Shown here: positions 5,705 to 8,812 of the stretch, piece after piece | How positions within the stretch are numbered: the first letter of the stretch is position 1 | How the letters are laid out: every line of letters begins with the position of its first letter | NCBI RefSeq assembly: GCF_988242995.1 | Contig: NZ_OZ547043.1 | DNA: 64,000 nt | Reading direction: 5' to 3' (one strand) | Notes under the pieces: model-generated | Seen by the model: only the letters and a program-made list of their open reading frames with translations | Told to the model about the DNA's origin: nothing | The model's database searches: none | Program-made: the position numbers and the translations under genes

Positions 5705-6565
5705 TTAATGCGATGATTGAGGGGTAAAGCGATAAAAACGATTTGGTTCGCTAACGATATAAATATTACCAGAGGCATCCATCGCAACCCCTTCGGCCTG
5801 TTTGATGTTATGCGACAAACCTCGACTGCCTTTGGTTAGTGACATTTCACCGATAACCTCGCCAACCAGGGTTACTTCCTGGAGTGCGCGAGATTCATGA
5901 GACAGCACCAGAAGCGTATTTTTTTGCTGGTTAAATTCTGCGCCGGACACATCATCTAAAGTAAATTGCCGTTGTAGTGCCTCGTCTTTGCTGATGTGTA
6001 ATTCATTGCTACTTAACAGCCCGTTAACTTTGTAGACCTCAATCGGATTTTTCTCTTTAAAAAACCAGAAAGTGTGATCCTGGCGAGAATAAGCCAACCC
6101 TTCAAAACCGCAATTGGTTGGGGAGTCTTGCAGCGGGATTTTTATTTTTTTGAGGATTTTTACTTCCGAGTTTGGGGTCAGTGAAATCACATAAATGGCG
6201 TAATCGCGCTCATCGCTAATGACAAACTGATTATCGCCAATGTATTCGATCGTCTCGAGATCCTTAACAAAATCCAGAGGAATTGTGCGGATAAAATCAC
6301 CATTGGTGGTCATTTCAACAATGGCGGCAGGTTTGTTGATAGTGCTAAAAAGAGTATTGCTTTGTGCCGACCAGGTCAGCGAAGAGATATTATTCGTTAT
6401 GCCTGCAATTTCTTTGCCGTCAATGGTGGCGTGGTAATTCTGAAATGATGCTGCATGATTGCTTTTACGGGCGCAAGATTGCACGAAGAAAGTACACACT
6501 GCCACAATGGCAAAAAGAATCACAATAACGGAGATGCGTTTACTTAACGAAATACTTTTTGTCAC
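5705..6565 (-). CDS. yjiK: SdiA-regulated family protein YjiK with N-terminal signal/anchor
   Basis: ORF-track frame is 323 aa, with no ATG in the first about 100 codons; an in-frame GTG (V38) preceded by an AAGGGA Shine-Dalgarno gives 286 aa starting at a basic-then-hydrophobic signal-like segment ([16 protein letters not shown]). Start is uncertain. Confidence 0.65.
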
Positions 6566-6629
6566 GGTAATCCCTTTAAGGCAAATCAATAAGATATCGA
6601 GAAGTATACGTAGCGACCTTAATGAATCC

Positions 6630-6887
6630 TTAACGCGGAGAAACCCCGTAATGTGCAATGCAGCGCCAGACACCATCCTGCTGGCAATAAATTGACTCAG
6701 TCAGCCCAGGGATCACCCATTGTATTTCCTCGCCGGGGGGACAGGTCAGCCAAATGCATAACCCGCAGCCGCCGCGTAAATCACGGGGAATATCGCTGAC
6801 GCGAAAAGTCATGCCCGCTGCCTGCAACGCTTTGCGGGTTTGTATGACGCCGACCGTGGAGTGAAATAAAAATAAAAACTCTTTCAT
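6630..6887 (-). CDS. Small conserved hypothetical protein (85 aa), translationally coupled to yjiL
   Basis: ATG overlaps the yjiL stop (ATGA at 6884-6887); GAGGA Shine-Dalgarno about 7 nt upstream; Cys-containing motif (GGCGLCIW...C); sits in the yjiM-yjiL-yjiK gene string. Confidence 0.5.
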
Positions 6888-7657
6888 CGGCGTGTCCTCA
6901 CTCGTTGACCAATTACCGCCGCGCCAATTGCGCCAGCAAATTGCGCATCAGGATGGGTATTTACCGGCATTCGCAGGTGAGATTCCAGCATCCGGGCAAA
7001 CTTCTGGCAATGACTAACGCCACCAGTAAACAGAATCGGCGCTTCACAGGAGAGACGAGCAATGAAATTGGCACTCCTCCGCGCCATCGCGTTAATCACT
7101 CCGGCGAGAATCGCTTCTGGCGCGACGCCCGCTGAGCGCAGGCTGATCGCTTCTGATTCAGCAAACACTGTGCACATACTCGTGATGGCGTGCGGCGTGA
7201 CATTTTCGGTAATGCTGTCGAGTTGCTCGACGCTGGTGCCAAGCGTGCGCGAGATCACCTCCAGGAAACGCCCGGTGCCCGCCGCGCATTTGTCATTCAT
7301 CAGGAAATCGCACAGGTTACCGTCATCATCAAGCTGAATCACTTTGCTGTCCTGACCACCGATGTCGATTACCGCGCGCGTTGCTGGCGCAAGAAACCGT
7401 GCGCCCAGCCCGTGACAGGAGATTTCCGTTACCTGTTTATCGGCAAAATCCACCAGTTGCCGCCCGTAGCCGGTGAGCGTCAGAAACGGCGTTGTCTCTA
7501 ACCCTTCGCGCAGAGTTTCCCAGGCTTCAGTAATTGCTGTTGCCGGGCGAAAGGGGGTTGGAACGAGGAAACGGCGCGTAATCACGCCGTCTGCCAGTAA
7601 GATCCCTTTGGTGGCGGTTGAGCCGGAATCAATGCCAATCGAATATGCCACTGCCAC
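6884..7657 (-). CDS. yjiL: BadF/BadG/BcrA/BcrD-type ATPase YjiL (2-hydroxyacyl-CoA dehydratase activator-like)
   Basis: 257-aa ORF; ASKHA-fold N-terminus (IGIDSGSTATKG) and activase-type motifs (IDIGGQDSK, CAAGTGRFLE). Confidence 0.85.
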   Translation of the reverse strand: MAVAYSIGIDSGSTATKGILLADGVITRRFLVPTPFRPATAITEAWETLREGLETTPFLTLTGYGRQLVDFADKQVTEISCHGLGARFLAPATRAVIDIGGQDSKVIQLDDDGNLCDFLMNDKCAAGTGRFLEVISRTLGTSVEQLDSITENVTPHAITSMCTVFAESEAISLRSAGVAPEAILAGVINAMARRSANFIARLSCEAPILFTGGVSHCQKFARMLESHLRMPVNTHPDAQFAGAIGAAVIGQRVRTRR

Positions 7658-7660
7658 TCC

Positions 7661-8812
7661 TTACAGCATCTCAATAAAGGCCGCGACACGGGTACTGAGC
7701 TGCCCGACATCCGAGGTGGAGTAGTCTGTTTCAATAGCGATATAAGGAATGTTGTGCTGCTGGCGCACATGACGTTTAATCGCCAGCGATTCCACCGCGT
7801 AGGTATGGCACGCCTGCAAAATCACATCAACTACGCCATCGACCTGATATTCCTCCACCATCTGGCTGAGCATTTTCAGGCGCTGATCGTTCGGCGAAAC
7901 ACAGGAGCAGCCAATCGCCAGATATTTATCCGCCAGCGCGTCGTAGACATCGCCCGTTTCTGCCACGCATTGCTCGGTCGCTTTCGCCCCGGTGCAGTTT
8001 TCATAACCGACAACCCAGCCGCCATTCTCTTCAATCGCGCGCACCACTTTTTCTGCTGCGCCGCCAATCGGGCAGCCGGTGATTAAAATGCGCGGACGCG
8101 GGTCCAGTCGCTGGCCTTCTTCCCACTGCTGACGAACGCGGGCGGTCATTGCATCCAGTTCATTGATCAACGCCTCTTTATCGAACCGGAAGGTTGCGCC
8201 GTAAACCACTTTCAGAATGTCGCTGCCGCTAAGCGCCGGAGGATTTAACTGCCCAAGATGATAAAAATTAGCCAGTGCGCGACGTTCGCGGTTTTTCAGC
8301 GCAATGGCATCGCGCAGAGCATCTTCGCTAATCTCGTGCCCAAAACGTTCTTCTACCGTTTTTTGCAAGCGCAGCATCTCGGCTTTCCATAACGCACGCG
8401 AGGCATCGTCCTTAACGCTGTTGGGCAATTGCATCACATGAACAGGCTTAAACTCCGCCATGTATTCATACATTTTCTTTTTGCCGTCGCAGGTGGTTTC
8501 ACCGACCACCAGATCCGAAAAGTAGAAGTAGGGGCATTTATCGGTTTTGCCGAAGCCGTAGCTGCTTTTAATCAGCGGGCAGAGGTTGCGCGGCAGATCT
8601 TTCTCCGCTTCTTCAATGGTTTCATCAGAGGTGGAACAGAGCGAAACCACAACCGCACCGGCTGCCATCGGGATCTCTTGCGGCATAAAGGTGCAGTAAG
8701 TGCCAACCAGCGGAATGCCGCGCTCCTTGAGATCCATGACGGTGAGAAAGCCTGTCTGGCGAGCTTCAGAGAACTGATCGAAAATGGCGGGTAGATCGGT
8801 GACAAGTGACAT
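7661..8812 (-). CDS. yjiM: 2-hydroxyglutaryl-CoA dehydratase D-component-like protein YjiM
   Basis: ORF-track frame starts at GTG 8833; internal ATG at 8812 with a GGAAGGAAA Shine-Dalgarno gives 383 aa; HgdB-like family; 3-nt gap to yjiL. Confidence 0.85.
   Translation of the reverse strand: MSLVTDLPAIFDQFSEARQTGFLTVMDLKERGIPLVGTYCTFMPQEIPMAAGAVVVSLCSTSDETIEEAEKDLPRNLCPLIKSSYGFGKTDKCPYFYFSDLVVGETTCDGKKKMYEYMAEFKPVHVMQLPNSVKDDASRALWKAEMLRLQKTVEERFGHEISEDALRDAIALKNRERRALANFYHLGQLNPPALSGSDILKVVYGATFRFDKEALINELDAMTARVRQQWEEGQRLDPRPRILITGCPIGGAAEKVVRAIEENGGWVVGYENCTGAKATEQCVAETGDVYDALADKYLAIGCSCVSPNDQRLKMLSQMVEEYQVDGVVDVILQACHTYAVESLAIKRHVRQQHNIPYIAIETDYSTSDVGQLSTRVAAFIEML

Follow-up and report, generated by a model that had tools for sequence, protein, structure and literature searches.

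The yjiM-yjiL-ytiA cassette of Escherichia coli: a predicted class II double-cubane-cluster protein system with an overlapping DUF3343 gene

The 64-kb stretch of the Escherichia coli chromosome analyzed here (the window) contains the genes yjiM, yjiL, ytiA, and yjiK, all on the minus strand. Our results indicate that yjiM, yjiL, and ytiA form a self-contained three-gene cassette, and that yjiK is a lineage-specific neighbor and not a component of it. Judging from the sequences, YjiM is very probably a homodimeric class II double-cubane-cluster protein (DCCP) and YjiL its dedicated reductase. The best overall explanation of the cassette, to which we give a little under an even chance, is that YjiL energizes YjiM while YtiA carries a chalcogen on Cys41. 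A first-pass annotation of this DNA had described a coherent redox module of unassigned function, and that description holds once the module is corrected to yjiM-yjiL-ytiA. As a genome feature the locus is already known, both as a class II DCCP system and as the site of an annotated ytiA gene. Two points were not found spelled out in the literature searched, namely that in gammaproteobacteria the cassette invariably has a DUF3343 gene in third place, and that DUF3343 is a recurrent in-operon neighbor of DCCP genes within strings of selenium genes.

The NCBIfam equivalog NF040772, named ‘double-cubane-cluster-containing anaerobic reductase’, matched YjiM with 531.4 bits against a cutoff of 350 over model positions 1-372 of 372, and the best solved relative was the Carboxydothermus DCCP (PDB 6ENO, E=5.7e-75). 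The HGD-D domain (PF06050) was also matched (E=6.7e-122). The earlier description of YjiM as HgdB-like is therefore right as to the fold, while at the equivalog level the protein is a DCCP and not an orphan HgdB. When YjiM was aligned with ten class I DCCPs, its Cys40, 59, 78, 93, 108, 273, 302, 304, and 335 proved invariant. These nine cysteines pair one to one with Cys75, 94, 113, 128, 143, 308, 340, 342, and 373 of a 6ENO-like protein, which shares 97% identity with the query sequence derived from 6ENO. The seven-cysteine DCCP motif, which comprises six ligands of the [8Fe-9S] cluster and one nearby cysteine, is complete in YjiM (Cys40, 59, 78, 108, 273, 302, and 335), with spacings of X18, X18, X29, X164, X28, and X32, compared with X18, X18, X29, X164, X31, and X32 in the 6ENO-like protein. 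The published regular expression for this motif, taken literally, matched neither protein; its printed spacings are off by 1-3 residues even when applied to the 6ENO-like protein, and the mismatch was dismissed. YjiM is 37% identical to the Carboxydothermus DCCP and lacks, in the alignment, the channel-closing N-terminal extension of about 37 residues found in class I DCCPs, which corresponds to class II as described in the discoverers' ChemBioChem review (PMC7317905). The review names YjiM/YjiL as a class II DCCP system. The active site of YjiM is reportedly more open than that of class I DCCPs.

The absence of an HgdA-like partner had been regarded as an oddity of this locus. According to the review, DCCPs are homodimers, each carrying a catalytic [8Fe-9S] cluster without a partner (PMC7317905), so no HgdA-like subunit is needed and the supposed oddity disappears. 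It is very improbable that yjiM and yjiL are the remnant of a 2-hydroxyacyl-CoA dehydratase, or an incomplete one, whose HgdA-like subunit is missing or encoded elsewhere. Pfam does place YjiM in HGD-D, and the RefSeq names in K-12 still speak of a dehydratase and its activator. However, the dehydratase models failed (HadC, 95.1 bits against a cutoff of 700; HadB, 19.9 against 750) while the double-cubane model passed, and the seven-cysteine signature is intact. A tblastn search of the window revealed no second HGD-D or activase paralogue, each fold being present in one copy. The ratio of nonsynonymous to synonymous substitution rates (dN/dS) of yjiM was 0.03-0.07, indicating that the gene is not decaying. 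None of the benzoyl-CoA reductase models was passed either; the best scores were 76.1 bits for BzdN (cutoff 453.8) and 160.7 for BzdQ (cutoff 380.2).

YjiL appears from its sequence to be an ASKHA electron-injecting ATPase that has kept two [4Fe-4S] ligands, as the first-pass annotation had proposed in calling it an ASKHA activase. It scored 363.6 bits with TIGR00241 (cutoff 125.4) and E=1.1e-76 with PF01869, and its structure matches were HadI (4EHT, E=7e-52), HgdC (1HUX, E=4e-51), and the DCCP reductase (DCCP-R; 7YYL_E, E=3.4e-45). Cys122 and Cys160 of YjiL align with cysteines 127 and 166 of HgdC, which we take to be the ligands of its [4Fe-4S] cluster. The corresponding cluster ligands of DCCP-R are C115 and C152 (PMC9351452). 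According to two reports, DCCP is reduced by DCCP-R in an ATP-dependent fashion (PMC7317905, PMC9351452), and in E. coli the ASKHA-type reductase gene adjoins yjiM, starting 9 nt downstream. The dN/dS of yjiL was 0.09-0.16.

These assignments were compared with known systems. The DCCP/DCCP-R pair of Carboxydothermus hydrogenoformans (CHY_0487/CHY_0488; PDB 6ENO, 7YYL, 7YZM, 7YZQ) has the same two families in the same gene order as yjiM-yjiL; all conserved cysteines are present, and by analogy the same ATP-dependent transfer onto [8Fe-9S] would be expected. In contrast to the class I loci of Carboxydothermus islandicus and Thermincola potens, E. coli has a third, overlapping gene, ytiA. The 2-hydroxyacyl-CoA dehydratases (HgdAB/HgdC, HadBC/HadI, FldBC/FldI) have the archerase-type activator and the HGD-D acceptor fold in common with the E. 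coli pair. They are, however, heterodimers of an alpha and a beta subunit, contain [4Fe-4S] clusters, and use CoA esters as substrates, whereas YjiM has no partner in the window and has the cysteine set of a DCCP. Class I benzoyl-CoA reductases (BzdNOPQ, MbdNOPQ; PDB 8S02, 9G87/9GAI) share ATP-driven low-potential reduction, and the title of PMC11971306 names an [8Fe-9S] cluster. YjiM is distantly homologous to BzdN and MbdN (E=2e-18 and 9e-18) and YjiL likewise to MbdQ and MbdP, but these reductases consist of four subunits (two different ATPase and two different HGD-D), while the E. coli locus has one of each. No aromatic-degradation genes were found near the cassette.

The product names in the RefSeq record of K-12 MG1655 (NC_000913.3, 4563922-4565850) are ‘putative dehydratase subunit’ for yjiM and ‘activator of (R)-hydroxyglutaryl-CoA dehdratase’ (sic) for yjiL. 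In the RefSeq annotation of strain 2452 and of other genomes listed, made with the Prokaryotic Genome Annotation Pipeline, yjiM is a ‘double-cubane-cluster-containing anaerobic reductase’. The K-12 names of both genes are outdated; moreover, ytiA belongs with yjiL and yjiM, and yjiK does not.

The third gene of the cassette had been described as an unlisted open reading frame (ORF) of 85 amino acids. It is in fact listed, as ytiA (b4715; YP_009518833.1, ‘uncharacterized protein YtiA’ in NC_000913.3), and it is annotated under the match in every RefSeq record among the matches listed. Its placement, the ATGA overlap, and the GAGGA Shine-Dalgarno sequence were confirmed, the ytiA ATG occupying 6887-6885 and the yjiL TGA 6886-6884. 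The domain search that the first-pass annotation had suggested for the small protein and for YjiM returned HGD-D and NF040772 for the latter and PF11823 (Se_S_carrier, formerly DUF3343) for the former, with E=4.4e-13 and 48.9 bits against a cutoff of 25, YtiA being a full-length member of the family. Homologues across the Enterobacteriaceae keep the frame, with 45 strongly conserved N-terminal residues and a variable C-terminus. The proportion of nonsynonymous differences (pN) was far below that of synonymous differences (pS) in all nine pairwise comparisons; dN/dS was 0.09-0.18 in the three calculable ones, synonymous sites being saturated in the other six. The gene is thus under purifying selection. 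Taken together, the family match, the pN below pS, and the conserved frame uphold the earlier view that the small ORF is a real, coupled gene, and the frame conservation and the Fe-S cysteines of YjiL and YjiM are the very features whose absence would have spoken against that view and against the redox module.

Among the cysteines of YtiA, one stands out. The first-pass annotation had noted a motif GGCGLC followed by two further cysteines; it is present (GGCGLC at residues 39-44, other cysteines at 49, 68, and 76), but across 74 aligned family members only Pro34 and Cys41 are invariant, with Gly42 nearly so. Cys44 occurs in 53 of the 74, giving CGxC, and the other cysteines of YtiA, including 68 and 76, are not conserved. 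An AlphaFold2 model built from the 74-sequence alignment had a predicted local distance difference test score of 92 and a ferredoxin-like fold (beta-alpha-beta-beta-alpha-beta-beta), with Pro34 and Cys41 in the exposed beta2-beta3 loop. Fold matches of the model were generic, either ferredoxin-like or PII-like, and PDB sequence searches with YtiA alone and with the 74-sequence profile returned no related solved structure. A polyferredoxin match (E=0.075) was rejected as a chance match between cysteine-rich sequences.

The locus is widespread in the species. Of 5426 complete E. coli genomes, 5390 contained the 3.3-kb region, which was 100% identical in many chromosomes, and 5381 had ytiA at 80% coverage or more. 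The small gene is far more polymorphic than its surroundings, with 2047 genomes 90-95% identical over ytiA compared with 3 over the 3.3-kb region, and one E. coli YtiA allele (P0005) has 85% identity at the amino-acid level. There may thus be two classes of allele, or the C-terminal half may be under relaxed constraint. Three predicted proteins of 217-220 amino acids (P0246, P0261, and P0265) join the YjiL C-terminus to YtiA sequence. Their junctions are garbled, so we did not accept them as fusions; they look like read-level assembly artifacts, with frameshifts across the ATGA overlap.

The extent of the cassette was defined from 80 loci encoding YjiM-like proteins (53-96% identity, one genome per species; 9 gammaproteobacterial and 71 others), which were scanned with the DUF3343 profile and with YjiL, YjiM, and YjiK. 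The order DCCP-activase-DUF3343 was found in all nine gammaproteobacterial loci, and also, with a 4-nt activase/DUF3343 overlap, in a metagenomic contig (L082) found from the DUF3343 side. The gammaproteobacterial carriers were Escherichia, Superficieibacter, Citrobacter, Cedecea, Hafnia, Aeromonas, and one metagenome-assembled genome of an unclassified ‘Proteobacteria bacterium’. The 9-nt gap between the DCCP stop and the activase start was kept in all of these loci, and the DUF3343 start abuts or overlaps the activase stop in the eight where it could be called (4 nt in five, 1 nt in Cedecea, 11 nt in Hafnia). The flanks vary: yjiN lies upstream in some loci only, the Hafnia cassette is flanked by genes with RapA, pseudouridine-synthase, and DnaJ/TerB domains, and that of Aeromonas by ABC transporter genes. 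A yjiK homologue accompanies the cassette in only 2 of the 80 loci (Escherichia and Superficieibacter). Because the gene order is constant amid changing flanks and yjiK is confined to two loci, the unit is yjiM-yjiL-ytiA without yjiK. Co-occurrence across genomes, which the first-pass annotation had proposed to check, thus holds in the gammaproteobacterial loci for these three genes, and not for yjiK, which that annotation had counted into the module.

Outside the gammaproteobacteria, the neighbors within 10 kb were clustered for the 71 Firmicutes and Actinobacteria loci, and representatives were named with Pfam and NCBIfam. An activase was a neighbor in 39 of the 71. The TIGR01977 cysteine-desulfurase family, for which the selenocysteine lyase SclA is the next-best model, was present in 16, DUF3343 in 13, the selenium-metabolism protein YedF (TIGR03527) in 10, SelD in 6, and an XdhC-like protein in 5. 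At least one of four selenium-linked families, namely selenocysteine (Sec)-lyase-like, YedF, SelD, and DUF3343, occurred in 20 loci. In L060 the genes run Sec-lyase-like, YedF, DUF3343, DCCP, and activase, with permutations or subsets of this string in L075, L037, L081, and L018, and a group of SelD, YedF, DUF3343, and Sec-lyase-like genes lies a few kb away in L023, L065, and L081. Of the 15 DUF3343 hits, 8 lay no more than 300 bp from the ORF of a DCCP or an activase, with four gene orders represented; about 11% would be expected from the flank fraction (binomial P=7e-5). Seen from the DUF3343 side, the neighbors of YtiA relatives were YedE (twice), YedF, YqeC, a DCCP cassette, and an activase remnant, together with a gene whose sequence, judged by eye, probably encodes a class V aminotransferase.

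Sulfur chemistry is also represented around YjiM-like DCCP genes. PatB-family C-S lyases (TIGR04350) were found beside them in six of the 71 loci (L014, L017, L027, L067, L068, and L069). Corrinoid methyltransferase sets (MtaA-like, corrinoid protein, or RACE-type activase) were found in nine, among them L057, L071, L076, and L078. Such corrinoid methyltransferase sets have been proposed to serve methyl-selenide recycling or methionine salvage. When these are taken together with the selenium-linked loci, a sulfur- or selenium-related neighbor of some kind was present in 31 of the 71.

Previous reports point in the same direction. In Lin et al. (2015), DUF3343 is proposed as a selenium or sulfur chaperone, and DUF3343 genes lie in selenium clusters with YedE, YedF, SclA-like lyases, and SelD; YtiA shares the family and the invariant cysteine. 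The same paper lists a ‘CoA-substrate-specific enzyme activase’ among the STRING partners of the Slackia DUF3343 protein, and that activase and 2-hydroxyglutaryl-CoA dehydratase subunits among those of YedE, YedF, and the LysR-like regulator; no comment on these partners was noticed in the text consulted. Haft and Gwadz, who built NF040772 and listed YjiM as a member, found 955 of 970 DCCPs in SelD-positive assemblies, and raised selenium within the DCCP cofactor as a formal possibility. In addition, DCCP and DCCPR appear in the drawings of selenium-associated gene clusters in a preprint on mlp clusters.

On this basis the following mechanism can be proposed. As in the Carboxydothermus homologue, homodimeric YjiL would take an electron on its bridging [4Fe-4S] cluster and, by analogy, would spend MgATP on its transfer to the [8Fe-9S] cluster, of very low potential, in the YjiM homodimer. 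YtiA, made in step with YjiL via translational coupling, would hold the chalcogen at Cys41 in an adduct of the persulfide, perselenide, or selenotrisulfide type, or would pass on an organo-Se/S compound, and would present this species at the open active site of YjiM. The energized cluster would then reduce it to selenide (or sulfide) for SelD or other downstream use under anaerobic or low-oxygen conditions. The anatomy of YtiA and its gene neighborhood allow us to propose, tentatively and at clearly less than even chances, that Cys41 carries the chalcogen and that the YjiM cluster reduces it. It is somewhat doubtful that DCCP systems in general are ATP-driven chalcogen reductases, with YjiL and YjiM together with YtiA turning hard-to-reduce selenium species into selenide for SelD. 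Candidate species are Se(0), whether or not bound to protein, diselenides and selenosulfides, and organoselenium compounds.

Several points weigh against this proposal. The chalcogen is brought in entirely by gene neighborhood, and the link of YtiA to YjiL and YjiM, or to selenium, is likewise drawn from gene context. Ordinary thiol systems can reduce persulfide and selenosulfide bonds, for which no super-reductant is needed. More plausibly, the substrate would be selenium at the Se(0) level, a diselenide, or a bond of the C-Se or C-S type, and this would fit the PatB lyase and methyl-selenide-type methyltransferase neighbors. DUF3343 is directly adjacent in only 8 of the 71 non-gammaproteobacterial DCCP loci, and the class I loci of Carboxydothermus islandicus and Thermincola potens comprise a DCCP and a reductase with no DUF3343, so the partnership is facultative. 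In Firmicutes, DUF3343 sits between YedF or Sec-lyase-like genes and the DCCP and activase genes, while in E. coli the sole cis partners of ytiA are the DCCP and its reductase; no YedF, Sec-lyase-like, or SelD gene adjoins the cassette, the selenium genes being located elsewhere. A search upstream of yjiM revealed no FNR-like site with two or fewer mismatches. The sigma-70 consensus scan gave three weak matches, none of them intergenic where the cassette could use it and none within the yjiN-yjiM intergenic region, the nearest (9001-8972) lying within yjiN. The family name ‘Se/S carrier’ itself stems from guilt by association (Lin et al., 2015).

The neighborhoods may also be read as reflecting a shared anaerobic lifestyle instead of shared chemistry. 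YjiM and YjiL would then reduce or dehydrate a non-chalcogen organic compound, for example a CoA ester or some other small molecule of low reactivity, and YtiA would be an accessory, regulatory, or passenger protein. We regard this as rather unlikely. In its favor, the nearest non-DCCP relatives of YjiM use acyl-CoA or aryl-CoA substrates, 51 of the 71 loci have none of the four selenium-linked families in reach, and the neighbors may instead be PatB C-S lyases, ABC transporters, or corrinoid methyltransferases. Against it, the DUF3343 gene is retained, with its overlap, in every gammaproteobacterial cassette although the flanks change, and in Firmicutes its adjacency recurs in four gene orders (P=7e-5). 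Furthermore, no acyl-CoA ligase, transferase, or dehydrogenase was recognized in the immediate flanks of the annotated gammaproteobacterial cassettes.

Another explanation makes YtiA a maturation factor that provides the bridging mu2-sulfide (or selenide) of the YjiM double cubane and has no role in turnover. A single invariant loop cysteine and cysteine-desulfurase-like neighbors fit a sulfur or selenium relay of this kind, as do the tight co-occurrence of DCCP with SelD and the possible selenium-containing cofactor (Haft), and translational coupling to the reductase is compatible with a role in assembly. Nevertheless, this is improbable. Most DCCP loci, including both class I loci checked, one of which encodes a protein with 97% identity to the sequence of the crystallized DCCP, have no adjacent DUF3343, and the Carboxydothermus DCCP overproduced in E. 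coli has the double-cubane cluster in the crystal, with no co-expressed DUF3343 mentioned in the available portion of the report (PMC7317905). DUF3343 also pairs with YedE transporters and with YqeC, neither of which has a double-cubane cluster.

Reduction of a YtiA-borne selenium species by YjiM, if true, would be a new ATP-consuming step in selenium assimilation and would explain the reported near-absolute co-occurrence of DCCP with SelD. The E. coli cassette would in that case be a minimal version, amenable to genetics, of the Firmicutes operon that also includes Sec-lyase-like, YedF, and SelD genes. If the selenium reading is wrong, the locus would still be the easiest one in which to identify what a class II DCCP acts on. 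Here members of the DCCP and DUF3343 families are translationally coupled in the best genetic model, and the physiological substrate of DCCP is stated to be unknown (PMC9351452); no later paper assigning one was found in the literature searched. Searching the literature for ytiA (b4715) of E. coli yielded nothing but unrelated work on a ytiA/L31 paralogue and zinc, mostly in other bacteria. As for expression, yjiM was upregulated 2.76-fold as oxygen became limiting in O157:H7 (PMC2241611), and the YjiM protein has been detected by proteomics.

The features of the locus are listed in Table 1. The first-pass annotation had placed yjiL 3 nt from yjiM. This is true of its longest ORF (GTG 7657), whose start overlaps its own GGAG sequence; from the annotated GTG 7651 the gap is 9 nt, which is the conserved distance, with a 5-nt Shine-Dalgarno spacer. 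The statement that yjiK is free of overlap only from an internal GTG proved correct: the longest ORF (ATG 6676, 323 amino acids) overlaps ytiA by 47 nt, whereas GTG 6565 (286 amino acids), which is the RefSeq start, gives no overlap. The only yjiK homologues found, those of E. coli and Superficieibacter, have 286 and 289 amino acids, matching the short form.

Table 1. Features of the yjiM-yjiL-ytiA locus in the window, and long DCCP paralogues in other loci (positions within the locus named)
Feature	Position	Strand	Description
yjiM	7661-8812	minus	383 aa; probable class II DCCP, presumed catalytic [8Fe-9S] reductase
yjiL	6884-7651	minus	255 aa; probable DCCP reductase, archerase-type ASKHA ATPase with bridging [4Fe-4S] cluster
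ytiA (b4715)	6630-6887	minus	85 aa; DUF3343/‘Se_S_carrier’ with Cys loop
yjiK	5705-6565	minus	286 aa, GTG start; RefSeq
yjiL stop/ytiA start ATGA overlap	6884-6887	minus	translational coupling signal; read from sequence
ytiA Shine-Dalgarno GAGGA	6895-6899	minus	inside yjiL coding sequence, 7 nt before ATG; read from sequence
yjiL Shine-Dalgarno GGAG	7657-7660	minus	right after yjiM TAA, 5 nt before GTG 7651; read from sequence
yjiN-yjiM intergenic region	8813-8927	minus	presumed cassette promoter region; no element identified
Long DCCP paralogue, L032	6732-8373		DUF3343 gene directly after
Long DCCP paralogue, L035	2987-4541		DUF3343 gene directly after
Long DCCP paralogue, L058	5328-6907		DUF3343 gene directly after
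Long DCCP paralogue, L078	11326-12896		DUF3343 gene directly after

No Rfam family matched the yjiN-yjiM intergenic region. Between yjiM, yjiL, ytiA, and yjiK no terminator-like site was intergenic, the few matches lying in coding sequence, and the predicted folding of the ytiA-yjiK spacer did not exceed that of shuffled sequence (z=-0.54). With no terminator-like structure between ytiA and yjiK, read-through transcription into yjiK is not contradicted by the sequence. An FNR-type palindrome with zero mismatches, TTGATGCAGATCAA, occurs at 16525-16538, distant from the cassette, and is the sole perfect one in the 64 kb.

In four loci a second, longer DCCP paralogue (419-453 amino acids, with a class I-type N-terminal extension) lies near the YjiM-like gene and is followed directly by a DUF3343 gene (Table 1). 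In three of the four DUF3343 proteins the conserved cysteine is part of a CC pair, and two of the proteins end in ...RDKYC and ...RDRYC. The idea that YtiA stands in for the N-terminal helices missing from class II DCCPs was rejected, since these extension-bearing paralogues also precede DUF3343 genes.

The metagenomic contig ERR4229011_113571 (L084:912-1297) contains a 48-amino-acid ORF with the activase N-terminal motif YGIGIDSGSTMAKG (E=3e-6 against YjiL). This remnant overlaps a DUF3343 gene that is intact, and a gene for a pseudouridine synthase lies just upstream. The arrangement looks like a decayed cassette; a pseudouridine synthase gene is also found immediately upstream of the Hafnia cassette. 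A DUF3343 gene may therefore outlive the loss of DCCP and activase.

Work on antimicrobial peptides treats ‘MdtM/YjiL’ or the ‘yjiL-mdtM gene cluster’ as an additional path by which proline-rich peptides are taken up (PMC8801401, citing Krizsan 2015). This cluster (6884-11580) spans yjiL, yjiM, yjiN, and mdtM, so that the redox genes or the transporter may account for this role. Finally, YjiK matches PF06977 (SdiA-regulated) and, weakly, phytase-like proteins. From the annotated GTG its N-terminus is basic and then hydrophobic, ending in VQSC, and looks like a signal or lipoprotein-type anchor.

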